This document shows positions 19,450-46,365 of a DNA stretch of 64,000 nt, piece by piece (within the stretch, counting starts at the first letter, position 1; each line of letters begins with the position of its first letter). The DNA is taken from NCBI GenBank assembly GCA_050011565.1, contig JBEKIW010000004.1, positions 60,553 through 124,552 on the forward strand. Direction: 5' to 3'. The position numbers and the translations under genes were made by a program. Origin of the DNA: Dehalococcoidia bacterium. Lineage in GTDB: Bacteria > Chloroflexota > Dehalococcoidia > GIF9 > UBA5629. A model generated the notes under the pieces. The model worked only from the letters and a program-made list of their open reading frames with translations, made no database searches and was not told the origin of the DNA.

Positions 19450-20692
<1,243 letters not shown>

Positions 20693-22932: not shown

Positions 22933-22955
22933 GATTCCTCCTATCGAAACTTAAT

Positions 22956-31367: not shown

Positions 31368-32966
31368 TTAGCCCAGCTTACGCAGTTCCGCTCTCAAAAC
31401 TTTGCCTAAAAGGTTCTTAGGCAATGCGTCAATAAATTCTACACTCTTAGGCGTTTTAAAGGTGGGCAGGCATTCCTTGCAAAAAGCTATCATCTCTTGT
31501 TCGTTAGCTTGCTCCTGCGCTTTGAGCACAACGAAAGCCTTTATTTCTTCTCCATAGGTCTTATCCGGGACGCCGATAACACCGGCTTCGGCAACCTTGT
31601 GATTTCGATAAAGAACCTCTTCTATTTCTCGTGGAGATACATTTTCTCCCCCACGGATGATAATATCCTTTTTCCGATCAGTGATGTACAGATAACCGTC
31701 TTCATCCATATAGCCTATATCACCTGTGTAAAGCCAGCCGTTCCTGATAGCCTGTGCTGTATCCTCAGGCAGGTTCCAGTAGCCTTTCATCAAAGTAGGG
31801 CCCTTTACTACGATCTCGCCTCGTTGTCCCTGCGGTAGCTCGTGGTCGTTGTCGTCAAAAACTTTGATAACGTTGCATCTTAACAGGTTCTTGCCGATAG
31901 AGCCGTATTTAGGCGGGAGGTCAACCGGTTGTCCGGTGGTAGTGGCTCCCGATTCGGTTAGCCCCCAACCTTCTTTTATATCCACTCCTGTCTTTTCTTT
32001 CCACCTCAAGGCGATTTCCACAGGAAGTGCTGCTCCGCCGGAATTGCAGGATTGAAGTGAACTTAAATCGTATTTGTCCAGGTCTGGGAAATCCAGCATC
32101 TGTATGTACATGGTGGGCACCGCTGCCATATGTGTAATCTTAAATGATTGAATCGCTTTCAGGGCTTCCTCGACATTCCACCACCTGAGCACGACAGCTC
32201 TTCCACCTACGAAGGAACCCATAATGCTGAAGGCAATGCCATATGAGTGAGAAAGAGGCAGCACCCCCAGGCTGATCGTGGTCCGACTAACGCCGGTAAT
32301 ACCCAGCGATTCTTCGATTGGTTTAAGTGTCTTGGGGTCTATGGAATAGATTGTTGAGCGAACAGTCAGTGGCAGGTGGATGAGGACATATTCAAAAAAG
32401 CATAGGGCATTGATGTAAAGAGAATAGTGGGTATGCATCACTCCTTTAGGCTGACCTGTGGTGCCGGCAGTGTAGATTAAAGCTGCAACATCATTGTTAT
32501 CGGTTTCTTCTGCAATTAGTTCGTCTGAGCTATCGGACATCAGTTTACGGTATGAGAGCGTCCCGGGAATGTCATCTTTGTCGGTCAAGATGATATATTT
32601 CAACTTGGGAGCCTGTTTCTGTGCCTCTAGAATCCATCCCAGATAATCCGAGCTGGTAAGTAAAGCTTTGGCTCCGCAATCGCGATATATATAAGAGGCC
32701 TGGTCAGGCCGAAGCAGCGGATTTAAAGGTACTACTATGCCACCTATCTTGTATATGGCAGGGAAAGCTGAAAATACAGGCGGGCTGTTTGGCATCTGCA
32801 CCGCTACCTGGTCCCCTTTGCCGATTCCAAGCCCCTTTAATGCATTGCCCAGTTGATTGGCGGTGCGATTTGTTTCAGCGTTGGTATACCATCTGCCTTC
32901 GAAGTAGATACTCTCATACTCCCCGAACCTTTTAACATTGTCCTCGATGAGACTACCGATATTCAT
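31368..32966 (-). CDS. AMP-dependent acyl-CoA synthetase/ligase
   Basis: 532 aa. AMP-binding motif (YTAGTTGQPKGV), TGD and C-terminal lysine region. Confidence 0.85.
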   Translation of the reverse strand: MNIGSLIEDNVKRFGEYESIYFEGRWYTNAETNRTANQLGNALKGLGIGKGDQVAVQMPNSPPVFSAFPAIYKIGGIVVPLNPLLRPDQASYIYRDCGAKALLTSSDYLGWILEAQKQAPKLKYIILTDKDDIPGTLSYRKLMSDSSDELIAEETDNNDVAALIYTAGTTGQPKGVMHTHYSLYINALCFFEYVLIHLPLTVRSTIYSIDPKTLKPIEESLGITGVSRTTISLGVLPLSHSYGIAFSIMGSFVGGRAVVLRWWNVEEALKAIQSFKITHMAAVPTMYIQMLDFPDLDKYDLSSLQSCNSGGAALPVEIALRWKEKTGVDIKEGWGLTESGATTTGQPVDLPPKYGSIGKNLLRCNVIKVFDDNDHELPQGQRGEIVVKGPTLMKGYWNLPEDTAQAIRNGWLYTGDIGYMDEDGYLYITDRKKDIIIRGGENVSPREIEEVLYRNHKVAEAGVIGVPDKTYGEEIKAFVVLKAQEQANEQEMIAFCKECLPTFKTPKSVEFIDALPKNLLGKVLRAELRKLG

Positions 32967-33199: not shown

Positions 33200-34642
33200 A
33201 TGGTAGGCATTAAATCATACGGCGCTTACATCCCAAGGTATCGGATAAATCACAATACAATCTTTTCTGCAGTAGGGTTCCTTGGTACTTTTCCGCCACC
33301 GGGTGAGAACGCAGTTGCCAACCATGATGAGGATACGCTTAGCATGGCAGTAGCTGCCGGCGTTGATTGCTTGAATAGCATGAAAAGAGAGGAGATAGAA
33401 GGACTCTATCTGGCAACCACCAGCCAGCCCTATATGTTAAGGCAGAACTCAGCATTAGTGGCGGCTGCACTGGACCTGCAAAATAATATTAGAACTGCAG
33501 ATTTCCTTGGCTCTAACAAGGCAGGAACGGGTGCACTTCTTTCTGCCTTTGACGCCGTCAAAGGCGGTACATTAACCAATGTACTGGTCTGTGCCTCTGA
33601 TTGCCGTGTAAGTAAACCGGGTAGCTCGCAAGAGCCTCTATATGGTGATGCCGCTGCCGCTGTCCTTATGAGCAGTGATGACGTCATTGCTACACTCGAA
33701 GGTCACTTTTCTATATCTTATGATTTTCCTGACCGCTGGAAAGCAACCAGTGATAAATTTGAACATGCCTGGGAAGATAGGTTTATTCGCGACGCGGGCT
33801 ATACCAAGATTATACCCGAGGCAATTTCCGGCCTGCTGAAAAAGTACAACTTAGCTATTACTGACTTCACCAAAATTGCATTTCCTGACCTTTATCCTAG
33901 AGAACATGCCGCGATAGTCAAACGATTGGGCGCCGACCCTCGCCAGATTCAGACATCGTTGCTGGATAAAGTCGGTGATAGCGGTGCGGCTTCGCCCCTG
34001 ATGATGCTGGTGGCAGCGCTGGAAGATGCCAAGCCAGGGGATAAGATAATGGTTGCCAGCTTCGGAAATGGCAGCGATGCTATGTTTTTCCAGGTAACTG
34101 AAAAGATTAAGAAGATAGGTGATAGGCGTGGCATAAAGAAGAATTTGGAGACGAAAAAGGAGCTTGCCAGTTACGAAAAATACCTCGCCTTTCGTAATCT
34201 GACACCTGTGGAGTTGGGGATGCGGGGTGAAATAGGTTTTCGCACTCCCATGTCTACATTGTTCAGGGAACGAGAAACAGTTTTGGCCCTGTGCGGCTCT
34301 AAATGTAAGCGTTGCGGGACGCCGCAATATCCACGCCAAAGAATATGCGTTAATCCTGACTGTGGTGCTGTAGACCAAATGGAGGGCTATCGTTTTTCTG
34401 ATAAAAAAGGTGTGCTGTTTACTTATACAGGTGACAATCTGGCAGCCAGCATTGACCCGCCCGCGATTTATGGGTTCGTAGATTTTGATGGCGGAGGAAG
34501 GTTCTGGTTTGACATTACTGATTGCGACCTGGACTCGACTAAAGTGGGCATGCCTGTGGAGATGACCTTTCGCAGGAGATATGTTGATGAGAGCGGTGGT
34601 GTTTATGGCTATTCCTGGAAAGCAATGCCAGTGCGTGCCTAA
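33200..34642 (+). CDS. HMG-CoA-synthase-like (UPF0219 / archaeal-type) domain fused to a C-terminal DUF35 (Zn-ribbon plus OB-fold) domain
   Basis: The N-terminal MVGIKSYGAYIPRYRI opening and thiolase-like fold over about 350 aa resemble archaeal-type HMGCS. The C-terminal 130 aa have CGSKCKRCG...CVNPDCG (Zn ribbon) followed by an OB-fold (FVDFDGGGRFWFDI...MPVEMTFRR), typical of DUF35. Confidence 0.7.
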   Translation: MVGIKSYGAYIPRYRINHNTIFSAVGFLGTFPPPGENAVANHDEDTLSMAVAAGVDCLNSMKREEIEGLYLATTSQPYMLRQNSALVAAALDLQNNIRTADFLGSNKAGTGALLSAFDAVKGGTLTNVLVCASDCRVSKPGSSQEPLYGDAAAAVLMSSDDVIATLEGHFSISYDFPDRWKATSDKFEHAWEDRFIRDAGYTKIIPEAISGLLKKYNLAITDFTKIAFPDLYPREHAAIVKRLGADPRQIQTSLLDKVGDSGAASPLMMLVAALEDAKPGDKIMVASFGNGSDAMFFQVTEKIKKIGDRRGIKKNLETKKELASYEKYLAFRNLTPVELGMRGEIGFRTPMSTLFRERETVLALCGSKCKRCGTPQYPRQRICVNPDCGAVDQMEGYRFSDKKGVLFTYTGDNLAASIDPPAIYGFVDFDGGGRFWFDITDCDLDSTKVGMPVEMTFRRRYVDESGGVYGYSWKAMPVRA

Positions 34643-34674
34643 GCGTCAAAACTGACTTTACGGAGGATACGAAA

Positions 34675-35877
34675 ATGGCAGAAGGTATTAGAGATAAGGT
34701 AGCTATCATCGGCATGGGCTGTACAAAATTTGGTGAGTTGTGGGATAAAGGCGCTGAAGACCTGATGGTGGACGCCTTCCAGGAATGCATTGAGGACGCC
34801 GGTATGGAAAAGAAGGATATCCAGGCAGCCTGGTTTGGCGTGCATTTTGAGGAGCAAAGTGTGGGAAAAGGGGCTACCTCTATGGCACTAGCGCTAAAGC
34901 TTCCTTTTATTCCTGTTACCAGGGTTGAAAACTTCTGCGCTACCGGCACGGAAGCTCTGAGAGGGGCTTGTTACGGCGTAGCTTCGGGGGCATACGATAT
35001 CGCTTTAGCCTTAGGTGTGGAAAAGCTAAAGGATACCGGGTATGGCGGCCTTCCCGGCGGCCAGGGCCTTTTAGGGTCCAGAAATGCGCTTATAATGCCT
35101 AAAATAACAGCACCGGGAAGTTTTGCCATGCTGGCGACGAGGTATTTCGCAGTGTACAGCCTCAGCCCCGAAGAAGGTAAGAAAATGCTGGCCAGGGTAT
35201 CAGCCAAAAGCCATCATAATGGTTCTTTGAACCCCAAGGCACATCTGCGACGCGAAATAACTGTGGAGCAGGTTATGAATGCTCCAATAATTGCCTGGCC
35301 GCTGGGGCTTTTCGATTGCTGCGGTGTCAGCGATGGTTCGGCAGCAGCTATCGTAACCACAGCTGAGCTGGCTAAAAAGTTCAGGCCTGACCCCGTATAT
35401 ATCAAATCTCTCCAGATTGCCTTAAGTTCGGGCGAGGAATTGATGTATACCAAATGGGATGGCGCGCATGTCGAGACCGGATTTCGCGCCGGAGTTCAAG
35501 CCTATAAAGAGGCCGGAGTTAAAAATCCGCGTAAAGAAATTAGCATGGCTGAAGTACATGACTGCTTCTCCATAACCGAAGCGGTAACTATGGAGGATTT
35601 GCAGTTCAGTCCCCGAGGAAAGGTTAAAGAAGATATCGAGGCTGGACGTTTCAATCTGGACGGCGAGCAGCCTGTTCAGCCCGACGGCGGATTGAAATGT
35701 TTCGGGCATCCTATCGGTGCCTCCGGCCTGCGTATGATGTACGAGATGTATAAGCAGCTGCAGGGCAAAGCCCAGTTGCCGGAACGACAGTTAAAGAACC
35801 CCAAGCTGGGATTAACTCATAATATGGGTGGCTTTCCGGCCATGAATATTGTTAGCGTGGCCATTGTTGGGTTATAA
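34675..35877 (+). CDS. thiolase-like protein (SCP-x / nonspecific lipid-transfer-protein type)
   Basis: 400 aa. N-terminal catalytic Cys region (VENFCATGTEALRGA), C-terminal GHPIGASGLRMM and CCGVSDG motifs. Confidence 0.8.
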   Translation: MAEGIRDKVAIIGMGCTKFGELWDKGAEDLMVDAFQECIEDAGMEKKDIQAAWFGVHFEEQSVGKGATSMALALKLPFIPVTRVENFCATGTEALRGACYGVASGAYDIALALGVEKLKDTGYGGLPGGQGLLGSRNALIMPKITAPGSFAMLATRYFAVYSLSPEEGKKMLARVSAKSHHNGSLNPKAHLRREITVEQVMNAPIIAWPLGLFDCCGVSDGSAAAIVTTAELAKKFRPDPVYIKSLQIALSSGEELMYTKWDGAHVETGFRAGVQAYKEAGVKNPRKEISMAEVHDCFSITEAVTMEDLQFSPRGKVKEDIEAGRFNLDGEQPVQPDGGLKCFGHPIGASGLRMMYEMYKQLQGKAQLPERQLKNPKLGLTHNMGGFPAMNIVSVAIVGL

Positions 35878-36202
35878 GACGGAAGAATGAACTTAAAAGG
35901 CAGGCTGTGGCTGATGGTGCGCCGGCGATATTTGACCTATATCAGGAAAGGGTATATGCTGGGCAGTAATTTACGTCTGATGCTATTGACATGCTGTGGT
36001 ATAATATTTGCCGTACCTCCGATTGTATTTTGTATTGAATATGCTATAAACTGGTCACATGAATAAAAAACAAATCTTATTAGTGGAAGGGGGTGGTCGT
36101 ATCGAGTGAATAAGACCAAGCATGCCGGGGCAAACATCGGTCGATGGTGTTTGTCAGCAAATTTGTCCTTAAGAGGAAATGTTTTAGGAGGTTAATGGCT
36201 AA

Positions 36203-38092
36203 GTGAAAAAAGTTCTGTTCTTATTGTTTACCTGTCTCTTACTTGTAGCGATTGTACTTCCTGCCTGTAAGCCTGGTCCAGCAGTTACCGGGCCAGTAAT
36301 AAAGATAGGCGTCATCGGGCCGATGCAATATATACAGGGCGAGCATCACTGGTGGGGTGCTGAGATGGCTCGTGATGAAATAAATGCGGCAGGTGGTGTA
36401 AAGGTCCTCCCTGACCAGCCCCCGTATATGGTTGAGCTAATCAAAGCAGACTCCAATGAAATAAACAGCATTACCGATGCCTCCGCGGCCATGGAAAAGT
36501 TGATAACGGTAGACAAGGCACAATTTGTGGTCGGGGGCTTCAGGACGGAAGCTGTCTTCCCCATGCAGGAAGTCGCCATGGACAACAAGATAATTTTCAT
36601 GAATTGTGGCGCGGCTACACTTGCACTACAAACGCCGGTGTTGACGAATTATGACCGCTATAAGTACTACTTCAGAGTCACTCCATTCCAATCCGGCTAT
36701 CTAGTCCAGAATGTGTTAATGTCAATGTCAATGGCCGAAAAAATAATAAAAGAGGATACCGGGATACAAAGGCCGTTGAATGCTGCTGTCTTTACTGAAG
36801 GGGCGCAGTGGGCTGATGCCATAACGTCAATCATGCAATCGCTGATTCCTACGAAGCTGGGTATGAAAGTCGTTGGCACATGGAGACCATCGCCTACAGC
36901 CACAGATTGTAATGCCGAGATGGCAGCTATACAAGCTGCTAACACCGACATTATCGGTGAAGTTATATCCGGCCCGCTTGGTGTACCATATGCCAGGTCA
37001 TGGGGCGAGCTGAAAGTACCGGCAGCTTCAGTGGGCATTAACGTTGAGTCCCAGGCTTTCACCTTCTGGGAAGCGACTCAGCATTTCGGCAACTTGGAGA
37101 CTGGCCTGGTTACATTAGCTGAGAACACAGCGGTTACGCCGAAGACTGTCCCGTTCTACAATGCCTTTGTAGCGAAGACCGGACAGCCACCCATATATAC
37201 TGGTGCCGGCACTTACGATGCCGTCTATACCTTGGCAGAAGCCATAACCCGGGCAGGGACTCTGGATTCAGATGCCGTGGTTGCTGAGCTGGAAAAGACG
37301 GATAGAGTTGGGGCTGGGGCCCGCCTTGTATTTACGGGTATTGATGATCCGTCGAAGGATCCTCACGACGTGACCTACGGTCCCGGATTTTCAACGGGTA
37401 TCGCCGGGCAGTGGCAGGATGGAAAATTGGTAGGTGTCTGGCCGAACCCTAACTATGTCGGGTATGTTCCGAATGATGCCTGGAAAACGGTGTCATATGA
37501 GGGAATGGTTAAGTGGATACCACGCCCCGAGCTAATCGACAAGTTGAAGGCCGAGGCGGCTACGCAACCGGCGGCACCCCCAGCGGGAGAACAACCTGCA
37601 GCACCTCCGGCGGGAGAACAGCCGGCAGCACCTCCAGCAGCAGGATTAGCGACTTACACCAACACCGAGTATGGTTTCTCCGTTCAATATCCTGGTGACT
37701 GGGTAGCGCGACCAGAGCTCATCATTAAGCCTGAATTCCAAAAGGCTGCATACGGTGTATCTGGCTTTGTTCCAGGGTTTGTTGCTTATGCCTTTGCTAA
37801 TCCTCCGGAGGAGTCTAAAGATTGGATCGTTACGTCTTTCAAGGCGACAGGCAATACAATGCCTAAAGTGACCTCAGACATCAAACAGGAGACTCTGGCG
37901 GATGGTACTCAAGCTTACACGTATAAAGCAAGCTATGTATCTGCCACTGGATATGGGATAGAGTCGTACGTCCTCGATGCAGATAAGGGAACCACCCGGT
38001 TTCGTGTGAATGTATTTACTATACCTGATATGGCTCCTATGGATGAGGCGCTGGCTTCGCAAGTTGCTCACTCTTTGACCTTTACAAAGTAA
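36203..38092 (+). CDS. Liv-type ABC transporter substrate-binding lipoprotein fused to a Pro-rich linker and a PsbP-like C-terminal domain
   Basis: 629 aa. GTG start, lipobox LPACK. Residues 30-440 are a periplasmic-binding-protein type I (LivK family) fold. Residues 455-480 are PAGEQPAAP x3. The C-terminal 150 aa begin YTNTEYGFSVQYPGDWV (PsbP-like hallmark). Confidence 0.7.
   Translation: MKKVLFLLFTCLLLVAIVLPACKPGPAVTGPVIKIGVIGPMQYIQGEHHWWGAEMARDEINAAGGVKVLPDQPPYMVELIKADSNEINSITDASAAMEKLITVDKAQFVVGGFRTEAVFPMQEVAMDNKIIFMNCGAATLALQTPVLTNYDRYKYYFRVTPFQSGYLVQNVLMSMSMAEKIIKEDTGIQRPLNAAVFTEGAQWADAITSIMQSLIPTKLGMKVVGTWRPSPTATDCNAEMAAIQAANTDIIGEVISGPLGVPYARSWGELKVPAASVGINVESQAFTFWEATQHFGNLETGLVTLAENTAVTPKTVPFYNAFVAKTGQPPIYTGAGTYDAVYTLAEAITRAGTLDSDAVVAELEKTDRVGAGARLVFTGIDDPSKDPHDVTYGPGFSTGIAGQWQDGKLVGVWPNPNYVGYVPNDAWKTVSYEGMVKWIPRPELIDKLKAEAATQPAAPPAGEQPAAPPAGEQPAAPPAAGLATYTNTEYGFSVQYPGDWVARPELIIKPEFQKAAYGVSGFVPGFVAYAFANPPEESKDWIVTSFKATGNTMPKVTSDIKQETLADGTQAYTYKASYVSATGYGIESYVLDADKGTTRFRVNVFTIPDMAPMDEALASQVAHSLTFTK
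37571..37645 (+). repeat. 27-nt tandem repeat (about 2.7 copies) encoding the PAGEQPAAP linker
   Basis: GCGGCACCCCCAGCGGGAGAACAACCT / GCAGCACCTCCGGCGGGAGAACAGCCG / GCAGCACCTCCAGCAGCAGGA. Confidence 0.7.
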
Positions 38093-38234
38093 CCATTTTA
38101 AATATTAGCGAGACCCCAGGCCAACGCCTGGGGTCTCGCCAGAGGCTTATCAGACGAATTGCCGGTCGGCAGTTTTTGAGGACGGCAAGCCTAGATTGAG
38201 AATGTTATATGGCAAATTAGCAAAAGGAGATGCG

Positions 38235-38879
38235 ATGACGAACAAGACATACAAATTCGTAACAGTGTTAATGGTCATGCTGCTTGTTCTGGGTCTGGCC
38301 TTAGTGGCCTGCAAGGCACCGGCTGAAACAGTAACGCCACCGGCTCCACCCGAACAACAAGCGACGCCACCGGCTGAACAACAAGCGACGCCACCGGCTG
38401 AACAACCAGCTACACCGCCGGCTGCACACCAACTGACATATACAGCTAAAACATATACTAATAGCCAGTATGGCTTCTCAATCCAGTACCCAAAGGATTG
38501 GGTAGAGCGCCCCGAAATCGCCAATGGGAGCCTTATCATTGCCTTCGGTGTACCCGGGTTCGTTCCTGGCGTAAGTATGAGTGTACGTGATGCAAATGAA
38601 CCTATGACTGCCGATTGGGTCGTGGCAGCGAATACGGCTGAGGGGAACACGAAGGTTAAAGTTACGTCACCTCCGACAGAGACAACTCTGTTTGACGGCA
38701 CGCCGGCAGTTCAGTACGTATCGAAGTTTACGTCTGGACAATACGACATTGTTTCTTTTGCCACCAGCACAGACAAGAACGGCAAGCGGATTCGTGCCAC
38801 TGTATGGACTATAGACGCGTTCTCTCCTTACGATGAGGCACTGTTCTCTGAGATAGCACACACCTTGTCAGTTAAATAA
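38235..38879 (+). CDS. PsbP-like domain lipoprotein with a Pro-rich linker
   Basis: The start is more likely the ATG at 38235 (RBS AAAGGAGA) than the ORF-track 38196. Lipobox LALVACK, PPAEQQAT x3 linker, then YTNSQYGFSIQYPKDWVERPE... This is homologous to the C-terminal domain of the upstream SBP. Confidence 0.6.
   Translation: MTNKTYKFVTVLMVMLLVLGLALVACKAPAETVTPPAPPEQQATPPAEQQATPPAEQPATPPAAHQLTYTAKTYTNSQYGFSIQYPKDWVERPEIANGSLIIAFGVPGFVPGVSMSVRDANEPMTADWVVAANTAEGNTKVKVTSPPTETTLFDGTPAVQYVSKFTSGQYDIVSFATSTDKNGKRIRATVWTIDAFSPYDEALFSEIAHTLSVK
38333..38420 (+). repeat. 24-nt tandem repeat (about 3 copies) encoding the PPAEQQAT linker
   Basis: CCACCGGCTGAACAACAAGCGACG repeated, with minor variation. 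Confidence 0.7.
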
Positions 38880-39013
38880 GAAATCGTTTTAGTCCTGTAT
38901 GGAGGCTGCAGGCCGGTTACAGTCTGTAGTCTCCATGAAGGTTAGCGGAACAAGTATGCCGTTTGGTACCGTAGAGTTAGGCAAGTAAGATTGAAGGTTA
39001 GGTAAGATAAGAT

Positions 39014-39886
39014 ATGGTTGAAGGAATTATAGTTCAGACTCTGGTGAAAGGAAGTGTATATGCGCTCCTGGCTCTCGGTTTCGCCCTAATCTTTGGGGTA
39101 GCCCGGGTGCTACAGCTGTCGCATACCGCGTTTTACATGCTGGCAGCCTACGGGATATTTGCTTTCGCCAGCTTACTCGGTTGGAGTCCGATTGTGTCCA
39201 TTATCCTGTCTATAGTCATTACTACCGGGCTGGGGCTTCTGGTGTACAAGCTACTTATCGACCGTGTACGTGAGCACCACGTAACCGTGATGCTGATAAC
39301 CCTGGCTGTAGCCATGATGTTTCAGCAGATCATGATTATTGCCTTCTCAGGTCAATATCGTTCAGCGCCGGCTTTTGTCACAGGATACTGGGAAATACTC
39401 GGCGTAAAAGTCGTCTTCCAGAATTTGCTGGTATTTGCTGGTGCGGCGGTTGTTCTGCTCATCGTATGGGCGCTTTTGTCAAAGACAAGACTGGGTATTG
39501 CCATCAGGGCTACCGCTCAGGACACCGAAATTGCCAATCTAATGGGGATAAATGTCTCCACTATACTGTTCACGGTTATGGGTATTGCCGCGGCACTGGC
39601 CGCGGTTGCCGGCGTGCTGGTGGCTCCAACGTTGGTCCTTGAACCTGGTATGCTGTGGCCTCCATTCGTCATGGTCATGGCGATAATTACTCTGGGTGGT
39701 CTGGGAAGCGTCAAGGGAAGTGTCATCGGAGCTTTTATTCTGGCCCTGGTTGAAACCCTGGTTGTTTTCTTGCTGCCTACCGGTGCCTTTCTTAAGGGGG
39801 CCGCCGCCTTGCTGGTCATGGTGATAGTACTCATTGTAAGGCCTGAGGGTCTATTTGGCGTAGTTTTCGAAGAGGAGAGATTGTAA
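39014..39886 (+). CDS. branched-chain-amino-acid-type ABC transporter permease (LivH family)
   Basis: 290 aa with about 8 TM helices, LivH-like. Confidence 0.85.
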   Translation: MVEGIIVQTLVKGSVYALLALGFALIFGVARVLQLSHTAFYMLAAYGIFAFASLLGWSPIVSIILSIVITTGLGLLVYKLLIDRVREHHVTVMLITLAVAMMFQQIMIIAFSGQYRSAPAFVTGYWEILGVKVVFQNLLVFAGAAVVLLIVWALLSKTRLGIAIRATAQDTEIANLMGINVSTILFTVMGIAAALAAVAGVLVAPTLVLEPGMLWPPFVMVMAIITLGGLGSVKGSVIGAFILALVETLVVFLLPTGAFLKGAAALLVMVIVLIVRPEGLFGVVFEEERL

Positions 39887-39887
39887 A

Positions 39888-40937
39888 TTGCTAAGTAGAT
39901 TATTTAAAGATTTTCAGGGCGATGTAGTGGCCATACCGGGCAGGTTAATAGCTTTAATTTTCTTTGTGCTCTTGTTTCTAATTCCTGCATTTACACAGCA
40001 GCCTTACATACTGCGTATGCTGATTTTTACGAATATGTTCGTTATCTTCGCCGTAAGCTGGGATTTTATATCCGGCTATACCGGCCAGTTGAACTTCGGT
40101 CATGCCCTCTTCTTCGGGGTGGCCGCCTACACGACAGCTTTGCTGAACAGGGGAGGCGACCTGGGCCCGCACTGGCCAATATGGGTAACCATACCGCTGG
40201 GTGCCATTGCAGCGGTAATAGCCGGCGTTGTCATGTGTTTGCCGGCATTGAGGTTGAGGGGACCCTATCTGGCTCTGGTAACCCTGGCGTTTCCACTTAT
40301 TCTTCTCGGGGTTATTTTCTCTTTTACCAAGTTTACCGGTGGTGAGTTAGGAATTTCCGGTATTGACCGCATTTCCGATTCCAGAACAGTAGAGTACTAC
40401 ATCTCAGTGCTCGTCATGATCGTCTCGGTATTCATAATGTGGAAGCTTACGGATGCCCAGAGCGGCCTGGTCAGGACAGGGATTATTCTTCATGCTATAC
40501 GCGAGGATGAAATTGCAGCTCGCGCCAGCGGAATAAATACAATACGATATAAGCTGTTCGCCTTTGCTGTAGGCGGCTTCTTCGCCGGAATAGCAGGCGG
40601 CTTTTATGCGCACTTCCTGAGAATTGCCGGTCCTTCCTCCCTGGACCTTACATTGTCGTTCCAAGCCATAATATGGACTGTTTTCGGAGGTATTGTTAGC
40701 ATTTACGGGGCGGTGGTGGGGGTTTATATACTTTATCCTCTGATGGAGTCCCTGCGTTCTATCTCGGAGTACCGGATGTTAATCTTTGCCGTCATAGTGA
40801 TACTGATTCTTCTTTTCATGCCTGAAGGCATTGCCGTCTGGATACGGGACAAGATTGAGAGACAATGTCCACGTTGCAAGCTGACTAATGTGTCATGGCG
40901 TCATACCTGTAGAGCTTGCAGCGCTGACCTGTACTAG
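39888..40937 (+). CDS. ABC transporter permease (LivM family) with a C-terminal CxxC..CxxC tail
   Basis: 349 aa polytopic. Last 30 aa: CPRCKLTNVSWRHTCRACSADLY. Confidence 0.85.
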   Translation: MLSRLFKDFQGDVVAIPGRLIALIFFVLLFLIPAFTQQPYILRMLIFTNMFVIFAVSWDFISGYTGQLNFGHALFFGVAAYTTALLNRGGDLGPHWPIWVTIPLGAIAAVIAGVVMCLPALRLRGPYLALVTLAFPLILLGVIFSFTKFTGGELGISGIDRISDSRTVEYYISVLVMIVSVFIMWKLTDAQSGLVRTGIILHAIREDEIAARASGINTIRYKLFAFAVGGFFAGIAGGFYAHFLRIAGPSSLDLTLSFQAIIWTVFGGIVSIYGAVVGVYILYPLMESLRSISEYRMLIFAVIVILILLFMPEGIAVWIRDKIERQCPRCKLTNVSWRHTCRACSADLY

Positions 40938-40989: not shown

Positions 40990-41739
40990 CTAGAGGCCGA
41001 GATACGTCTTTCTGATAGTTTCGTCTTTGAGCAACTCTGCAGCTGTTCCTTGGGCGATGATATGGCCTCTTGACATAACGTAATTTCTTACTGAGAGGCT
41101 AAAAGCGAAACTGACATCTTGTTCAGCCAGTAAAATAGTAACACCCAGTTCGCGGTAAATCTCTTCTACACGTTTAAACAGGTCCTGCTTTAATTTTGGT
41201 GCCAGGCCGCTTGAGGGTTCGTCAACCATCATGAACTTAGGGCGACGCATCAACGACCTGCCAATAGCCAGCATTTGACGTTCACCGCCGGATAGTGTTC
41301 CCGATATTTGATTCTGTCGTTCTTTCAGTCTGGGAAAGAGCTCATAGACCTTTTCCATGCTACTATTAATTGCCTTCTGGTCCTTGACAAGATAAGCGCC
41401 GGCCAGCAGGTTATCTTTAACCGTCATTTCAACAAATGGCCTGCCTCGCTCCGGGCAAAGGAGCAGACCTCTTTTGGCTATATCAGATGCCGACAGATTT
41501 TCAATCCTCTCACCCTCGAACTCTATAATCCCATCGAAGGTTATATCAGCCTGTCTGGTTCCTTTTGAGACCTCTTTCTCCCACTTTATTAATCCTGCCA
41601 TAGCCCTGAGTAAGGTGCTCTTTCCGGCACCGTTGGGGCCGACAAGGCTCACCAATTCGCCTTTTTCTACATTAAGGCTGGCGTCATCCAGCACCGTGGC
41701 CGTGTCGTAACGGACGGTTACGTTTTTAACTTCCAGCAA
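40990..41739 (-). CDS. ABC transporter ATP-binding protein (LivF family)
   Basis: Walker A GPNGAGKST, signature LSGGERQ, Walker B MMVDEPS. Confidence 0.85.
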   Translation of the reverse strand: MLEVKNVTVRYDTATVLDDASLNVEKGELVSLVGPNGAGKSTLLRAMAGLIKWEKEVSKGTRQADITFDGIIEFEGERIENLSASDIAKRGLLLCPERGRPFVEMTVKDNLLAGAYLVKDQKAINSSMEKVYELFPRLKERQNQISGTLSGGERQMLAIGRSLMRRPKFMMVDEPSSGLAPKLKQDLFKRVEEIYRELGVTILLAEQDVSFAFSLSVRNYVMSRGHIIAQGTAAELLKDETIRKTYLGL

Positions 41740-42499
41740 TGAGCACCTCCTTACCTGTGTAAGCTTCGATTACTACGGGGTTTTTGGATATTTCTTCAGG
41801 TGTGCCTGTAGCGATGATTTCGCCAAAGCAAAGTACAATTACTCTGTCTACTATCTTCATCAGCTCACTAAGCTTGTGCTCTATGATAAGCATAGCCGGC
41901 CCTTCACTATGAAGCCGGCCGAATCTCCCGCCTTTGTGTAACCGTTTCATTGATTTGGCCACAAGCTCGGTTTCGGCTGGGTTCAATCCGCCGAAAGGCT
42001 CATCGAGGATAAGCAACTCCGGTTCGGTGGCAATAGCTCTGGCTACCTCCAGCCGCTTTAAATCCCCGTGTGCTAGAATAGAAGCCGGTTCTAGAGCCAT
42101 GTCGGCGATACCTACGAATTCCAAAGCGTCTCGTGCCTTTACCTCGACTCTTTTGACCCATTCGCCTCGCTTGGATATCCTCGGGCAGAGACAACCTACC
42201 ATAACGTTAGCTATGATAGGCAAATGGCGGAAAGGTTTTACTACCTGGAAAGTTCCCACCATACCTCTCTGGACAATATCCCACGATCGTTTTCTGGTTA
42301 TATCTTTGCCGTCAAGTATGACTTTTCCTGAATCCGGCCTCAATATGCCGAGTAAGCAGCGTATGAGTGTGGTCTTGCCCGAACCGTTTGGCCCAATCAG
42401 GCCGACGATTTCATCTCTTTCTATCTTGAAGCTCACATTATTAACAGCAGATAGACCGCCGAAGGTCTTGGTTAAATTTTCGACTTCTAGAAACGCCAT
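41726..42499 (-). CDS. ABC transporter ATP-binding protein (LivG family)
   Basis: Walker A GPNGSGKTT, Walker B LILDEPFGGLNP. Its start lies 7 nt after the upstream CoA ligase stop. Confidence 0.85.
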   Translation of the reverse strand: MAFLEVENLTKTFGGLSAVNNVSFKIERDEIVGLIGPNGSGKTTLIRCLLGILRPDSGKVILDGKDITRKRSWDIVQRGMVGTFQVVKPFRHLPIIANVMVGCLCPRISKRGEWVKRVEVKARDALEFVGIADMALEPASILAHGDLKRLEVARAIATEPELLILDEPFGGLNPAETELVAKSMKRLHKGGRFGRLHSEGPAMLIIEHKLSELMKIVDRVIVLCFGEIIATGTPEEISKNPVVIEAYTGKEVLIAGS

Positions 42500-42506
42500 T
42501 TTATAG

Positions 42507-44216
42507 CTACTCCTCTCTCAGCTCACGACGAGATACTTTGCCGACATCTGTTTTAGGCACCTCGCCTCTGAACTCGACGATTGTGGGACACTTATAATCA
42601 GCTAGCCTCTCCTGGCAATATTTCATGATATCCAGCTCTGATAGCTTCCCTCTGGCTTCTGTCTCGAGGACAACTACTGCTTTTACTTTCTCTCCAACCT
42701 CGGGGTCGGGAACTCCGATTACACCCGTCTCCTTGATTTGAGGATGAGCCGCCAGGACTTCTTCTACCTCCCTGGCATATACAATCTTGCCCTTGTGCTT
42801 AATCATATCACGTTTTCTGTCGTAGAAAAAGAAATAGCCGTCTTGATCCATTCTGCACAAGTCGCCGGTACGAAGCCAGATTTCACCGTCTATATTGACA
42901 AATGTTTCACTGGTTGCCTCCGGGTTTTTCCAGTATCCTTTGGCTACTTGTGGACCCTTTATTATAAGCTCGCCTATCTCGCCAACAGAAAGAAAATTGT
43001 TGCTATCGGGGTCGACTATGGCAGCCACGGTATTAGGTAGAGGTACACCGAAAGAGCCGACTTTTGTTTTGCCGAATGGGTTGACAATTCCCACAGAAGT
43101 TGTTTCAGTCATCCCCCAGCCCTCGTGGATTTTGGAGCCCGTCCTTTTCTCCCAGCCTTTAGCCGTGTCCTCAAGTAGGATGTCGGCGCCGGAGATAAGA
43201 ACTTTGACGCGCTTCCAATTGACTCTGTCGGTGCGGTGGTAATCTCGAAGATATTCATATAAGGCCGCCACGCTGTAGAAAATAGTTGCATGGTAAGTTT
43301 CCATGGCGTTGAGTAAGTCGTCAAGGTCGATGGTGGTGAATATCACCAGGGTGTATCCCTGCGCCAGACCACCCGCCACCAACACCGCCTGGCCATAGAT
43401 ATGATAGAAGGGCAAATAAGCTAAAATGGTTTCCTTGCCTTCTTGCGTAACATCGCCCCAGAAATTTGCGGCTATATGTTCGGATACGTTAATGTTTTCG
43501 TGGGTTATCATAACACCTTTGGGTAGTCCCGTTGTCCCTCCGGTGTAGGGAAGAGTTACCAGGTCCTCCTTATTGTTGAATTCGATTTTCGGTGGATTGG
43601 GTGGATATTTCTTAATCAAGTCTTTGAATAGATAGAATCCCTCTCTATGGTAGAGCTCGGCAGGCGGTGCTGCCATCTTCTGGTAGACGGCACGGAGTAC
43701 GCTGCTGCCCATGAACCTTTTCAGCCACGGTATATAATCGGCGATATTTACCAGGATGACCTTATCCAGCTTGACTTCTGCCCGTTCGACGTTATCATAG
43801 AGATTATCCTGGCAGATAATTATGGTGGCGCCGCTGTCTTCAATTTGATGTTTGATTTCGGGGCTGACATAGAAAGGACTGATGGCAGTTAAAATGGCTC
43901 CAGCCTTTAAAGCTCCGAAAAAGGCTATGATGAACTGGGGTGAGTTCAGAAGTAGTAAAGCGACTCTATCCCCCTTTTTAACTCCTAAGTCCTGGAGAGC
44001 TGTGGCGAATCTATCGACATGGTCTCTTAGCTCGCGGTAGCTCATCTTCCTGCCATAGAATATTACGGCAGTTCTATCCTTCCATTTGTCTGTGGCTTCG
44101 TTAAAGATGTCAACTGCGGACTTATCCGCCATTTTTATGTCCGCCGGCACCTCCGGGAGATAGAACTTCAGCCACGGTCTGGATTCGTATATTGCCTTGT
44201 TGGTATCGGCCGCCAT
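42507..44216 (-). CDS. AMP-dependent acyl-CoA synthetase/ligase
   Basis: AMP-binding motifs (YTGGTTGLPKGV, GWGMTE, TGD). The start is taken at the internal ATG (44214-44216), which has a perfect RBS AAAGGAGGAGGTGA. The ORF-track 5' extension MLYFAPNKGGGDI appears to be leader sequence. Confidence 0.85.
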   Translation of the reverse strand: MAADTNKAIYESRPWLKFYLPEVPADIKMADKSAVDIFNEATDKWKDRTAVIFYGRKMSYRELRDHVDRFATALQDLGVKKGDRVALLLLNSPQFIIAFFGALKAGAILTAISPFYVSPEIKHQIEDSGATIIICQDNLYDNVERAEVKLDKVILVNIADYIPWLKRFMGSSVLRAVYQKMAAPPAELYHREGFYLFKDLIKKYPPNPPKIEFNNKEDLVTLPYTGGTTGLPKGVMITHENINVSEHIAANFWGDVTQEGKETILAYLPFYHIYGQAVLVAGGLAQGYTLVIFTTIDLDDLLNAMETYHATIFYSVAALYEYLRDYHRTDRVNWKRVKVLISGADILLEDTAKGWEKRTGSKIHEGWGMTETTSVGIVNPFGKTKVGSFGVPLPNTVAAIVDPDSNNFLSVGEIGELIIKGPQVAKGYWKNPEATSETFVNIDGEIWLRTGDLCRMDQDGYFFFYDRKRDMIKHKGKIVYAREVEEVLAAHPQIKETGVIGVPDPEVGEKVKAVVVLETEARGKLSELDIMKYCQERLADYKCPTIVEFRGEVPKTDVGKVSRRELREE

Positions 44217-44246
44217 TATGTCACCTCCTCCTTTATTTGGAGCAAA

Positions 44247-44256
44247 GTATAGCACA
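44247..44256 (-). promoter_or_regulatory. extended -10 promoter element TGcTATACT for the downstream CoA ligase
   Basis: Minus strand reads TGTGCTATACT, about 30 nt upstream of the ligase ATG. A duplicate sits at 46366-46376. Confidence 0.35.
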
Positions 44257-44500
44257 GTGTTTGTATTTTGCCAATGTGACTGAGATGTTTGGTGGTTATA
44301 TTAAAGTACGAACGAAATATACGCAGGATTGAGTTTTGCGAATTTAACAGCGTTCGCCCTGGTACTTTCATAACAGCACCAAATTCTAAGCTAGAGCAGA
44401 TTGTTGCCCATTTCTTTTGTTCGGTTGATAGGCTCTTTGCCGGCATCTAAGGCAGGCTTGTGAAAGGCTACATCAGTATCGCTTCAATGTCAAGCCGGTT

Positions 44501-46333
44501 TTACAGCTCGTCCTCTCTCAATTCCCGCCTAGATACTTTGCCGACATCTGTCTTTGGCACTTCACCCCTGAACTCTACGATTCTGGGACATTTATAGTGC
44601 GCCATATGTTCCGCGCAATATTTCATGATTTCTTCTTCGGAGACTTTGCCTCTGGCGTCCGTCTCGAGGACGACGATGGCTTTGACTTTCTCTCCGACGT
44701 TTTTGTCGGGAACCCCGATTACACCCGCCTCTTTGACCAGTGGATGCGCTTTCAGTACCTCCTCCACCTCCCTGGCGAATACCGCCAGGCCCTTATATTT
44801 AATCATGTCACGTTTTCTATCGTAGAAAAAGAAATAGCCTTCTTTGTCCATTCTGGCCAGGTCGCCGGTTCGAAGCCATGTTTCGCCGCCGATTTTGACG
44901 AACATTTTCTTCGTCTCTTCCGGATTATGCCAGTATCCTGGGGATATTTGTGGACCCCTGACGGCAAGCTCGCCTATCTCGCCAACAGGCAGAAATTTGG
45001 TGCTTTCAGGACTGAGTATTCCAGCTACTGTGTTACACATGGGGACGCCGAAAGAACCGACCTTCGGCCTGCCGTATGGACTACCCATTCCAATAGAGCT
45101 AGTCTCAGTCATACCCCAGCCCTCATGTATTTTAGTATTTGTCCGTTTCTCCCAACCTATCGCCGTATCTTCAAGAAGGGCATCGGCGCCGGAGACGAGA
45201 ACTTTGAGGCGCTTCCAGTTAATTCTGTCCGTACGTTGATAATCTCTGAGGTACTCATACAAAGACGGGACGCTGAAGAAAATAGTTGCCTTGTAGCTTT
45301 CGATGGCATTTAAGATGTCGTCGAGGTCGGGGGTGGTGAATATCACCAGGGTGTAGCCCTGAGCCAGACCACCCAACATAATCACTGCCTGACCGTAGAT
45401 ATGGTAAAAGGGCAAATATGCCAGTATGGTCTCTTTGCCTTCCTGGACAATATTTCCCCAGAACTCTGAGCCTATGTACCTGGCTGCAGTGATATTATAG
45501 TGGGTTATCATAGCTCCTTTGGGAAGTCCTGTTGTGCCGCCGGTATAGGGCAGGGTTACCAGGTCCTCATGAATATTGAACTTGATTTTTGGCGGCTTGG
45601 GCGGATATTTCTTAATCAAGTCCTGTAATTGATAAATTCCTTCTCTTTCATATATCTCAGAAGGTGGTGCTGCCATCTTCTGGTATACAGCCCTGAGTAT
45701 GCTGCTGCCCAGGAACTTTTTTAGCCCGGGTAAATATTCTGCAATACTGGTCAGGATAACCTTATCCAGTTTGACTCCTGACCGTTCCACATTTTCATAA
45801 AGTATATCCTGGCAGACGATTATCCGGGCGCCGCTGTCTTCAATTTGATGTTTGATTTCGGGACTAACATAAACAGGACTGATGGCAGTCAGTATAGCTC
45901 CAGCCTTCAGGGCGCCGAAATAGGCTATGATGAATTGAGGTGAGTTCAGGAGCAGTAAAGCAACCCTATCACCTTTTTTGACTCCCAGGTCCTGCAAGGC
46001 TGTGGCGAATCTATCGACGTGGTCTCTTAATTCGCGGTAGCTTATTTTTCTACCGTAGAATATTACGGCGGTCCTATCCTTCCATTTAGTTGTAGCTTCA
46101 TCGAAGGTTTCGACTGCGGATTTTTCCGGTATTTTGACATCCGCGGGCACCTCTTTGAGGTAAAACTTCAGCCATGGTCTTTTTTCATATATTGCCTTGT
46201 TTGGGTCAGCCTTTGGAGCAGCTTTCTTTACTTGAGCTTTCTTTAGTTGAGCTTTCTTTAGTTGAGCTTTCTTTAGTTGAGCTTTCTTTGGGTGAGCCTT
46301 CTTTGGGTGGGACTTCTTTGGGTGAGCCTTCAT
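44501..46333 (-). CDS. AMP-dependent acyl-CoA synthetase/ligase with a lysine-rich N-terminal repeat tail
   Basis: Paralog of 42507..44216, about 75% identical by eye. The start is taken at ATG 46331-46333, preceded by TTAGGAGGAGACGACACA. The N-terminus is MKAHPKKSHPKKAHPKKAQLKKAQLKKAQLKKAQVKKAAPK. Confidence 0.8.
   Translation of the reverse strand: MKAHPKKSHPKKAHPKKAQLKKAQLKKAQLKKAQVKKAAPKADPNKAIYEKRPWLKFYLKEVPADVKIPEKSAVETFDEATTKWKDRTAVIFYGRKISYRELRDHVDRFATALQDLGVKKGDRVALLLLNSPQFIIAYFGALKAGAILTAISPVYVSPEIKHQIEDSGARIIVCQDILYENVERSGVKLDKVILTSIAEYLPGLKKFLGSSILRAVYQKMAAPPSEIYEREGIYQLQDLIKKYPPKPPKIKFNIHEDLVTLPYTGGTTGLPKGAMITHYNITAARYIGSEFWGNIVQEGKETILAYLPFYHIYGQAVIMLGGLAQGYTLVIFTTPDLDDILNAIESYKATIFFSVPSLYEYLRDYQRTDRINWKRLKVLVSGADALLEDTAIGWEKRTNTKIHEGWGMTETSSIGMGSPYGRPKVGSFGVPMCNTVAGILSPESTKFLPVGEIGELAVRGPQISPGYWHNPEETKKMFVKIGGETWLRTGDLARMDKEGYFFFYDRKRDMIKYKGLAVFAREVEEVLKAHPLVKEAGVIGVPDKNVGEKVKAIVVLETDARGKVSEEEIMKYCAEHMAHYKCPRIVEFRGEVPKTDVGKVSRRELREDEL
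46221..46333. repeat. 15-nt tandem DNA repeat (about 7 copies) encoding the K-K-A-(Q/H)-(L/P) tail
   Basis: GCTTTCTTTAGTTGA x3, then GCTTTCTTTGGGTGA / GCCTTCTTTGGGTGG / GACTTCTTTGGGTGA. Confidence 0.7.
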
Positions 46334-46365
46334 TGTGTCGTCTCCTCCTAATTTGCTAAGCGTCA

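Follow-up and report, generated by a model that had tools for sequence, protein, structure and literature searches.

A pair of adjacent genes in the window, by which we mean the whole 64,000-nucleotide stretch of Dehalococcoidia DNA analysed here, encodes, with a probability that we put at roughly 75%, a thiolase complex acting in thiolytic acyl-CoA cleavage together with a non-catalytic partner, a fusion of an HMG-CoA synthase (HMGS)-like domain to DUF35. Enzymes of this type, a thiolase with an HMGS-like partner, are on record in the literature from 2020 and 2026; this kind of complex is already known, and the result for this window is chiefly a corrected annotation and not a discovery. A sequence-only reading of the same DNA had proposed a 480-aa HMGS-like::DUF35 fusion followed by an SCP-x-type thiolase, and both open reading frames and their domains were confirmed. 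The module consists of the following features:

33200..34642, plus strand: HMGS-like::DUF35 fusion gene, 480 aa (open reading frame; domain matches; AlphaFold (AF2) pLDDT 94; identical database protein)
33200..34204, plus strand: HMGS-like thiolase-fold domain, residues 1 to about 335 (phmmer alignment to 6esq_I and PhlA; Foldseek)
34295..34369, plus strand: DUF35 zinc ribbon, residues 366-390, with Cys369, Cys372, Cys383 and Cys388 (Pfam zf-ChsH2)
34379..34630, plus strand: DUF35 OB-fold, residues 394-477, with invariant R458, Y471, W473 and K474 (Pfam OB_ChsH2_C; alignment to 6esq_E and PhlB)
34662..34666, plus strand: ribosome-binding site GGAGG of the thiolase gene (sequence)
34675..35877, plus strand: SCP-2/archaeal-type thiolase gene, 400 aa (NF004810; 6esq_A; motif positions)

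The fusion gene is preceded by a Shine-Dalgarno sequence, AGGAGG, at 33187-33192, and its product is an archaeal-type HMGS fold joined to a DUF35 zinc-ribbon/OB-fold. Residues 1-333 match the NCBIfam archaeal HMG-CoA synthase model NF003274 with an E value of 1e-63, at a score of 215 bits that is under the cutoff of 244, and the score against TIGR00748 is likewise under threshold (136 against a cutoff of 353). The DUF35 identity of the C-terminal part was borne out by Pfam OB_ChsH2_C, which residues 401-458 match above cutoff (40.8 bits), by zf-ChsH2, for which residues 366-390 score slightly below the cutoff (21.1 against 23.2 bits), and by the best alignment of this part, which is to 6esq_E, the DUF35 subunit of the archaeal complex (E 3.5e-14; 56 bits). 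The FRR...Y.YK tail of the OB-fold is common to the 6esq_E and PhlB alignments. The AlphaFold model has a pTM of 0.94; its top Foldseek matches are PhlA (9skh, 5mg5), archaeal HMGS 6esq_I/J and MucA, and its HMGS fold superposes on 6esq_I/J with a TM-score of 0.92 and an rmsd of 1.5 Å. The protein is 100% identical to P0001 from a Dehalococcoidia MAG, every one of its best 120 database matches is at least 75% identical, and automatic pipelines name it hydroxymethylglutaryl-CoA synthase.

The fusion and thiolase genes are probably co-transcribed because the gap between them is only 32 nt; a promoter and terminator scan gave counts no greater than those of shuffled sequence. The thiolase scores 627 bits against NF004810 (cutoff 403), which places it in the NCBIfam 'acetyl-CoA acetyltransferase' equivalog; among solved structures it is closest to the archaeal acetoacetyl-CoA thiolase 6esq_A. 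It carries the nucleophile Cys88, H295-D-C297-F (HDCF, 295-298) and G344-H345-P (GHP). None of these varies among the adjacent partner thiolases (55/55), and they are likewise present in five thiolases from cultured organisms. SCP-2 thiolases are told apart from aldolases by HDCF and the nucleophilic cysteine (PMC12329534), and the 400-aa protein has both.

Relatives of the fusion protein were found in at least 597 loci of species-representative genomes, mostly of anaerobes, by a scan run with a 10-sequence alignment, a diverse 42-sequence alignment being too divergent; with E<=1e-30 there are 609 clusters at 50% identity. Identity to the 480-aa protein is 33-42% for relatives from cultured Proteobacteria. 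Pairing and context were counted in the 42 loci that span 12 kb of sequence or more: the thiolase was found in 39 of them, mostly immediately downstream, and an acyl-CoA dehydrogenase (ACAD), SDR or hydratase in 34. The operon of close relatives (L004, L009, L011 and L012) runs from HMGS::DUF35 and the thiolase through a HadA/HadB-like (hot-dog hydratase) pair and one or two SDRs to a PimC/D-like ACAD pair, and L007 has the same order with one SDR. A divergent ligase lies upstream of the operon in L003, L008, L012 and L014. The order SDR-MaoC-HMGS::DUF35-ACAT was seen on Variovorax and Sphingomonas replicons, and family neighbours also include ETF, CoA ligases or CoA transferases and uptake systems. 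The literature was also searched for links between HMGS-like/DUF35 proteins and either anaerobic hydrocarbon metabolism or that of sulfate reducers, with no relevant result.

Natural fusions also occur in the family: P0122 is HMGS-like+DUF35+SDR+SCP2, P0124 adds 2xSCP2 and P0156 adds SDR. Such SDR and SCP2 fusions of the scaffold hint at a metabolon hub. P0201, an HMGS-like N-terminus with ATP-grasp and molybdopterin-binding domains, was set aside because DUF35 is missing from it and the gene call may be a chimera.

The surroundings of the module in the window contain the following features:

21799..24140, minus strand: PimC/PimD-like acyl-CoA dehydrogenase pair (NCBIfam matches; BLAST to loci)
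31368..32966, minus strand: AMP-forming acyl-CoA ligase, divergent from the fusion gene (Pfam AMP-binding; NF004837, 461 bits)
35907..35946, plus strand: deletion scar, made up of what remains of a hot-dog hydratase gene start (ATG -> GTG) and then the junction (DNA alignment)
36203..40937, plus strand: Liv-type ABC uptake system (Pfam Peripla_BP_6, BPD_transp_2)
40990..46375, minus strand: two ABC ATPases and two more acyl-CoA ligases (Pfam and NCBIfam matches)

The divergent ligase is presumed to be the activating enzyme, and orthologues 70-90% identical to it occupy the same position in L003, L005, L008, L010, L012 and L014. The uptake system comprises a 629-aa substrate-binding protein, a 227-aa copy of its C-terminal domain and two permeases, and its synteny is confined to the closest relatives (L003, L005); the ATPases and ligases that follow are probably part of the same uptake/activation module. 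Compared with syntenic L003, the window lacks about 1.9 kb, with two genes for hot-dog hydratases and one for an SDR (DNA alignment and L003 gene coordinates), and tblastn with these three L003 proteins gave no match in the whole 64 kb. The window copy has lost its hydratase and SDR genes through this deletion. The sequence-only reading had described the module as flanked by acyl-CoA ligases, CoA-transferases and ACADs; this holds only loosely. A single ligase, the divergent one, is adjacent; the remaining two are found 7-10 kb further downstream, the ACAD pair is 9-11 kb off on the upstream side, and the CoA-transferases are at a distance of 20 kb, each separated from the module by unrelated genes. 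The acyl-CoA genes of the window are mostly outside one single operon. The ACAD pair is paralogous, at 37-51% identity, to the pair in the relatives' operons, and its partnership with the thiolase module is possible but unproven. With the hydratase and SDR genes deleted and the remaining acyl-CoA genes dispersed, the local route has gaps, which paralogues located elsewhere may fill.

Since thiolases can work in either direction, we considered whether the complex might run in the condensing direction in vivo. It would then supply fermentation, chain elongation or a storage polymer with acetoacetyl-CoA or longer 3-oxoacyl-CoAs, and the dead HMGS domain would only stabilise the thiolase. The equivalog name of the thiolase and the anaerobic host, in which reverse beta-oxidation is conceivable, speak for this direction. 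However, the PfACAT/HMGS-DUF35 complex of Pseudomonas fluorescens (Nat Commun 2026;17:2196) carries out thiolysis of acetoacetyl-CoA and gave no acetoacetyl-CoA from acetyl-CoA in vitro (PMC12960953), the family's neighbours (ACADs, ETF, CoA ligases/transferases, uptake systems) are typical of catabolism, and one homologue sits within an estrogen-degradation operon, all of which make a condensing role unlikely.

The archaeal HMGS tetrad is lost from the fusion protein. In the phmmer alignment, T74, N106, P229 and D260 stand opposite E82, C114, H238 and N270 of 6esq_I, so that the HMGS-like domain would be unable to make HMG-CoA. The sequence-only reading had concluded by eye that the catalytic cysteine is absent; the conclusion holds, with the register of that alignment off by one residue, since HMMER pairs the archaeal 'FACKAGT' with 'GSNKAGT' in the window and places the cysteine opposite N106. 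Among 132 diverse full-length relatives, chosen as representatives of 50%-identity clusters, none has Glu at the E-equivalent position (0/132). The eight commonest residues at the C-equivalent position are L, Q, M, P, T, R, V and A, with no Cys, and the H-equivalent is P, Y, A or S, with no His among the eight commonest residues listed. Judged from this alignment, the family appears to have fixed no substitute catalytic residue at the C- and H-equivalent positions. The four ribbon cysteines are 95-98% conserved across the 132 relatives, and the R458, Y471, W473 and K474 columns are invariant in the family alignment. Against the 93%-identical orthologue in L003, dN/dS is 0.09 for the HMGS-like domain, 0.01 for DUF35 and 0.025 for the thiolase. 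Purifying selection acts on all three modules and is strong on the dead domain, and the value of 0.09 indicates a functional scaffold and not decay. The earlier suggestion that the domain is a non-catalytic scaffold is supported by replacement of all four catalytic residues, in this protein as in the relatives.

The same selection could be taken to mean that the HMGS-like domain has acquired a new catalysis at or near its old pocket, for example as a decarboxylase, hydrolase or isomerase, and invariant or near-invariant polar residues are available family-wide (R15, D43-E44-D45, D101, R136, E145 and a WEDRF.RD.GY motif). Yet the old catalytic positions vary among relatives; YIPxYR and DED, which are among the invariant motifs, are present in active archaeal HMGS too, which fits a structural or interface role; and thiolysis is the sole activity reported for the P. 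fluorescens complex (PMC12960953). We regard a new activity in this domain as distinctly improbable.

Among solved proteins, PhlA matches the HMGS-like domain best, by sequence and by structure, and PhlA and MucA are also without the tetrad (PMC12960953), which raised the question of a Friedel-Crafts-type C-acyltransferase that, like PhlACB/MucABC, would place acetyl onto a phenolic or tetramic-acid acceptor. The thiolase component argues otherwise: it retains HDCF, whereas PhlC and MucB are without the HDxF motif (PMC12960953), and it is far nearer the archaeal ACAT (204 bits) than PhlC (only about 80 bits). Moreover, domain annotation of the long open reading frames detected no PKS or NRPS genes (type III PKS or NRPS-PKS) in the window, and DUF35 is fused here and not a separate subunit. 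This chemistry is highly unlikely and was rejected.

An ordinary mevalonate module of the archaeal kind, with the thiolase supplying acetoacetyl-CoA and the HMGS domain HMG-CoA, would agree with the pipeline name and with the fact that all three modules are closest to the three subunits of archaeal 6ESQ. It is scarcely credible given the replacement of Glu, Cys, His and Asn and the under-threshold HMGS scores: whole-tetrad substitution in archaeal HMGS abolished HMG-CoA formation, and the fused P. fluorescens complex of the same architecture makes no HMG-CoA either (PMC12960953). As the sequence-only reading had noted in doubting a mevalonate unit, the MEP-pathway genes dxr (16833-17960) and ispG (14709-15761) are both inside the window, and domain annotation of its long open reading frames found no mevalonate genes, including HMG-CoA reductase and mevalonate kinase, in the 64 kb. 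That reading had instead favoured C-C chemistry on an acyl-CoA in the style of BbsAB or ChsH/Ltp, of which the thiolytic variant agrees with the SCP-2 residues and the beta-oxidation neighbours. The retro-aldol variant, in which a protein like Ltp2-ChsH2 or Sal-Shy, DUF35-associated thiolase-fold proteins found beside MaoC hydratases in steroid side-chain degradation, would split a 3-hydroxyacyl-CoA, is dismissed as very unlikely because Cys88 and HDCF are present here and the aldolase-like Ltp2, Sal and SLP proteins have YDHF (Ltp2), YDCY (Sal) or YDCF and, in Sal, Gly at the nucleophile position (PMC12329534).

The preferred reading is that of a thiolytic complex. It would descend from the archaeal thiolase/HMG-CoA-synthase/DUF35 complex, with the HMGS module turned non-catalytic and fused to DUF35. 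Most likely the thiolase dimer is docked through the zinc-ribbon/OB-fold of the fusion protein, which probably also contributes part of a shared CoA-binding chamber, a scaffold and chamber role suggested by structures known for the archaeal, Phl and Muc systems, and all chemistry would take place in the thiolase, with Cys88 as nucleophile and HDCF and GHP present. Physiologically, the complex most likely performs the final thiolysis when a carboxylic acid is degraded by (R)-specific beta-oxidation. This acid would be imported by the neighbouring ABC transporter, converted to its CoA ester by the divergent ligase and processed by a heteromeric ACAD together with a hot-dog hydratase and an SDR dehydrogenase. 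Gene context and analogy with the steroid, Bbs and peroxisomal MFE-2/SCPx systems suggest that it is probably a bulky, branched or alicyclic compound; on a relative, acetoacetyl-CoA is the one substrate that has been tested. We infer complex formation in this organism, as well as the in vivo direction and the substrate class.

A wider proposal, which we consider rather unlikely, is that dead-HMGS::DUF35 serves as hub for a metabolon of (R)-specific beta-oxidation, in which one chamber would hold the CoA end while the acyl end visits SDR, hydratase and thiolase, and which abundant anaerobes, among them Dehalococcoidia, Desulfobacterota and Syntrophales, would use on branched or alicyclic acids in peat and sediments. 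In any case, the family is a clean case of a pseudo-enzyme retained under strong selection as the partner of an active enzyme, and the label 'hydroxymethylglutaryl-CoA synthase' would wrongly give Dehalococcoidia and many sulfate reducers and syntrophs a mevalonate step.

Among known systems, the P. fluorescens type resembles the module in architecture and motif pattern as published: HMGS and DUF35 form one polypeptide, the E-C-H-N tetrad is lost, and the adjacent ACAT has Cys, HDxF and GHx, with no PKS/NRPS neighbours. The host here differs in being an uncultured anaerobic Dehalococcoidia. The authors of that work see in their complex an evolutionary intermediate that belongs to no pathway (PMC12960953). 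In contrast, the family here shows strong selection and beta-oxidation operons, and these conserved contexts argue that the class is the thiolase unit of specialised beta-oxidation and offer a concrete route to its substrates.

A homologue on plasmid p3 of Novosphingobium sp. ES2-1 lies in an estrogen-catabolic cluster beside SDR and ACAD genes. It aligns over 100% of the query (34-35% identity for the scaffold, 45% for the thiolase), has no tetrad, a four-Cys ribbon and a YFWK tail, and its partner thiolase has Cys, HDCF and GHP. The p3 gene order is that of the E2-induced edc OpA operon of N. tardaugens, an equivalence drawn by gene order only; there the pair is the thiolase EGO55_13550 and the 'HMG-CoA synthase' EGO55_13555, the latter assigned no step (PMC7793797). 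The edc cluster has P450, dioxygenase, Ltp/DUF35 and FadD3 genes for steroids, whereas none of these was found in the window. The actinobacterial estrogen aed cluster was rejected as a homologue, as it uses AedL, a ChsH2-like MaoC-DUF35 protein, and no HMGS fusion.

The archaeal complex 6ESQ has the same three modules and is the best solved match for the thiolase and for DUF35, but its HMGS is an active, separate subunit feeding the mevalonate pathway, whereas in the window the tetrad is gone, the HMGS module is fused to DUF35 and MEP genes are present. PhlACB/MucABC (PDB 5M3K/5MG5, 9VBO/9VBT) share a tetrad-less HMGS-like partner of a thiolase-fold enzyme with DUF35, but differ in the lost HDxF, the acylation of aromatic or tetramic acceptors, the three separate subunits and the secondary-metabolite context. 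BbsAB (PDB 7PXP) is likewise a DUF35-assisted SCP-2-type thiolase with HDxF serving the final step of a specialised beta-oxidation, but has no HMGS-like module; the BbsA/BbsB equivalogs score far under cutoff here (NF053627, 21.8 against 250; NF053628, 134.5 against 750), and a bbs-type operon is absent from the window. Peroxisomal MFE-2/SCPx beta-oxidation combines a D-specific hydratase/dehydrogenase with an SCP-2-type thiolase. The relatives' operons, with hot-dog hydratase and SDR alongside an SCP-2-type thiolase, resemble this D-specific pathway, and the metabolon hub, if real, would be its prokaryotic counterpart.

The two ORFs of the sequence-only reading are present on the forward strand (480 and 400 aa), separated by 32 nt:

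33200-34642, + strand, fusion gene (480 aa), an ORF with a good ribosome-binding site
34675-35877, + strand, thiolase gene (400 aa), an ORF with a good ribosome-binding site

Residues 1-333 of the fusion protein matched the archaeal HMG-CoA synthase (HMGS) model NF003274 with 215 bits (E 1e-63), which is under the curated cutoff of 244 bits. At the C-terminus both halves of DUF35 were matched, Pfam zf-ChsH2 (366-390) and OB_ChsH2_C (401-458). The claimed fusion of an HMGS-like domain to DUF35 is real. The DUF35 part is most like 6esq_E (E 3.5e-14), the DUF35 subunit of the solved thiolase/HMGS/DUF35 complex of the archaeon Methanothermococcus. The AlphaFold model of the fusion protein is confident (pLDDT 94, pTM 0.94), and its best structural matches are PhlA (9skh, 5mg5), archaeal HMGS 6esq_I/J (TM 0.92, rmsd 1.5 Å) and MucA; PhlA and MucA are HMGS-like subunits of Friedel-Crafts acyltransferases. 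The 400-aa protein is a thiolase by model NF004810 (627 bits, cutoff 403), and among solved proteins it is closest to 6esq_A, the acetoacetyl-CoA thiolase of the Methanothermococcus complex (204 bits). A protein from a Dehalococcoidia MAG is 100% identical to the fusion protein.

A 2026 study of such complexes defined E-C-H-N as the HMGS tetrad and showed that the archaeal enzyme no longer makes HMG-CoA once the tetrad is replaced (PMC12960953). The tetrad positions were read from a HMMER alignment of the fusion protein to 6esq_I, and all four are replaced:

Residues of the fusion protein at the HMGS tetrad positions
Glu82 (6esq_I, GSESHPY): T74 (fusion protein, ATTSQPY)
Cys114 (6esq_I, FACKAGT): N106 (fusion protein, GSNKAGT)
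His238 (6esq_I, VFHQPNG): P229 (fusion protein, AFPDLYP)
Asn270 (6esq_I, LGNTYS): D260 (fusion protein, VGDSGA)

A role in the mevalonate pathway is thereby excluded at the level of catalytic residues, and the earlier non-mevalonate interpretation holds. Conservation was examined in an alignment of the window protein with 132 full-length members taken from the best 150 representatives of 50%-identity clusters. The Glu position is Thr in 116 of 133 sequences and Glu in none of the 133; among the relatives, the commonest residues are L, Q, M, P, T, R, V and A at the Cys position and P, Y, A and S at the His position, and neither Cys nor His is among the eight commonest at these two positions. 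HMGS chemistry was thus lost long ago, a loss common to every fused relative examined, and the old catalytic positions have gained no newly fixed residue. The four zinc-ribbon cysteines are 95-98% conserved, and P12, R15, D43-E44-D45, G259, L270, G291, P421, R458, Y471, W473 and K474 are invariant; R136, E145 and WEDRF (191-195) are invariant or nearly so. The proposal that the HMGS-like domain is a non-catalytic scaffold is supported by the loss of the tetrad in the window protein and in the relatives examined.

The dead HMGS-like domain is not decaying. In a comparison with the orthologue at the syntenic locus L003 (93% protein identity, dS 0.5-0.65), the HMGS-like domain has a dN/dS of 0.09, DUF35 one of 0.01 and the thiolase one of 0.025. 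The best 120 database matches to the fusion protein are all 75-100% identical to it and nearly all exactly 480 aa long.

The thiolase is intact, with Cys88 (NFCATG), H295-D-C-F and G344-H-P. All 55 thiolases whose genes directly follow a fusion gene have identical motifs, as do five thiolases from cultured bacteria. HDCF with a nucleophilic Cys is the SCP-2 thiolase signature; among the related aldolases, Ltp2 has YDHF, and Sal has YDCY and a Gly in place of the nucleophile (PMC12329534). Friedel-Crafts acylation, the activity of the PhlA and MucA complexes, fails on the kept HDCF motif and on gene context. The acyl-CoA C-C chemistry envisaged in the sequence-only reading was either aldolytic or thiolytic; the aldolase part fails on Cys88 and HDCF, which together with the gene contexts support the thiolytic part. 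We conclude that the two proteins most likely form a thiolase complex, with the fossil HMGS, fused to DUF35, as its non-catalytic partner. If it is built like the archaeal, Phl and Muc complexes, DUF35 would clamp the subunits and the HMGS-ACAT interface would form a CoA chamber, and from this we infer that the scaffold probably stabilises the thiolase and helps to bind CoA.

An exhaustive search of representatives yielded 3247 relatives of the fusion protein at E<=1e-3 and 609 at E<=1e-30, with full fused length in about 130 of the best 150, and a one-genome-per-species scan gave at least 600 stretches, of which at least 597 were confirmed as loci. The best 80 of these lie in Dehalococcoidia, other Chloroflexota, Desulfobacterales, Syntrophales, Desulfatiglandales and one Hadesarchaeon. 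Cultured aerobes carrying the pair on plasmids or chromids include Variovorax, Sphingomonas, Sphingobium, Novosphingobium, Rhodococcus, Azoarcus and Mycobacterium. Several MAGs have at least two paralogous loci (e.g. L005/L013, L015/L020), and in Desulfosarcina alkanivorans PL12 the two copies (L063, L069) lie some 30 kb from each other. Some genomes contain tandem duplicates (scaffold-thiolase-scaffold-thiolase), and in others the fused pair is immediately preceded by a second thiolase and a stand-alone DUF35, often with ACAD-EtfB-EtfA following (L022, L076; L023, L027, L028, L033, L037).

ORFs were called and clustered in the best 80 of the at least 597 loci, and gene content was counted in the 42 with at least 12 kb of sequence. 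A thiolase is present in 39 of the 42, an ACAD, SDR or hydratase in 34, and three or more of the four functions of beta-oxidation (activation, dehydrogenation, hydration, oxidation) in 17. Close relatives (76-93% identity) have in common the core HMGS::DUF35 - thiolase - small hot-dog - small hot-dog - SDR, which L004, L009, L011 and L012 extend by a second SDR and an ACAD pair; in L007 a single SDR precedes the ACAD pair. Upstream of the fusion gene, L003, L008, L012 and L014 have a divergent ligase. In L004 the hot-dog proteins are a HadA/HadB-like pair (FAS1_DH_region and MaoC_dehydratas), the two SDRs are FabG-like (259 and 308 aa), and the ACADs are a PimC/PimD-like pair followed by a Peripla_BP_6 binding protein. 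Variovorax and Sphingomonas share the gene order SDR - MaoC - fusion - 'acetyl-CoA acetyltransferase', and only in Variovorax do an ACAD and a CoA transferase come next. Longer natural fusions of the dead HMGS::DUF35 also occur, with SDR and SCP2 (P0122), two SCP2 (P0124) or SDR (P0156). MaoC-type hydratase, SDR dehydrogenase, SCP2 domain and SCP-2-type thiolase are the parts of D-specific beta-oxidation, which handles 2-methyl-branched and steroid-type acyl-CoAs. The conserved gene contexts make it likely that the thiolase performs the final, thiolytic step in a specialised and probably (R)-specific beta-oxidation of an acid taken up from outside.

In the window, DNA alignment of 35878-36202 with L003 10680-12860 showed that about 1.9 kb is missing between the thiolase and ABC binding-protein genes, a clean deletion that took two hot-dog hydratase genes and one SDR gene. 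After the thiolase stop, the ribosome-binding site and first codons of the first hot-dog gene remain (ATG changed to GTG at 35907), and the alignment resumes about 1.9 kb further on in L003, ahead of the binding-protein gene. Neither the two hot-dog proteins nor the SDR of L003 had a match anywhere in the 64-kb window. Given this deletion and the lack of a match, the genome at this site keeps the ligase (31368-32966, - strand), the scaffold-thiolase pair and the Liv-type ABC transporter, and has lost the cognate hydratase and dehydrogenase. L005 (80% identity) represents an intermediate state with the SDR only. The PimC/D-like ACAD pair at 21799-24140 is paralogous to the operon ACADs of the relatives (37-51% identity).

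The Liv-type substrate-binding protein (36203-38092) is unusually long at 629 aa; a Pro/Ala-rich linker leads to its C-terminal domain of about 140 aa. This domain is duplicated, with a weak PsbP_2 match, in a separate 227-aa protein encoded just downstream at 38196-38879 (46% identity, E 5e-41). The MEP genes lie within a conserved housekeeping string at 14709-21517 (- strand; rpsS2 (ribosomal protein S2), several ORFs, cdsA, dxr, rseP, ispG) that is unrelated to the thiolase locus. Also among housekeeping genes are two large paralogues with IPT/TIG Ig-like domains (29400-31025, - strand; 10731-12482, + strand), 29-32% identical to each other via the L003 orthologue and probably surface proteins. 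A bacterial serpin (53291-54580, - strand; Pfam Serpin, E 7.5e-119) adjoins a trypsin-like protease (52025-52801, + strand) and an M28 peptidase (50469-51719, - strand). A 250-aa ORF (48355-49107, + strand) combines a TaqI_C-like specificity domain with a Ydc2/RuvC-like resolvase domain and is possibly what is left of a mobile or restriction element.

Protein pairs of this kind have already been described in two papers (2020, 2026); new here are the corrected annotation, the natural SDR and SCP2 fusions, the local deletion, and evidence that the family is under selection and embedded in a pathway rather than an evolutionary leftover. The 2026 study mined 1,030 bacterial HMGS/ACAT/DUF35 loci, 1,001 of them without PKS or NRPS neighbours, and purified one such PKS/NRPS-free complex, from P. 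fluorescens (Nat Commun 2026;17:2196, PMC12960953). In that complex the HMGS is fused to DUF35 and lacks the tetrad, and the ACAT keeps Cys, HDxF and GHx. It made no HMG-CoA but did thiolyse acetoacetyl-CoA, its HDxF His mutant is nearly dead, and its authors regard it as an evolutionary intermediate still outside any pathway (PMC12960953). In Novosphingobium tardaugens, thiolase EGO55_13550 adjoins the 'HMG-CoA synthase' EGO55_13555, a 3-hydroxyacyl-CoA dehydrogenase and an ACAD within the estradiol-induced edc operon, and the authors could assign no step to EGO55_13555 (Front Microbiol 2020;11:588300, PMC7793797). The same gene order is found on a plasmid of the estrogen degrader Novosphingobium sp. 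ES2-1. The fusion protein encoded there aligns full-length with the window protein at about 34% identity, and its pair has lost and kept the same residues as the window pair.
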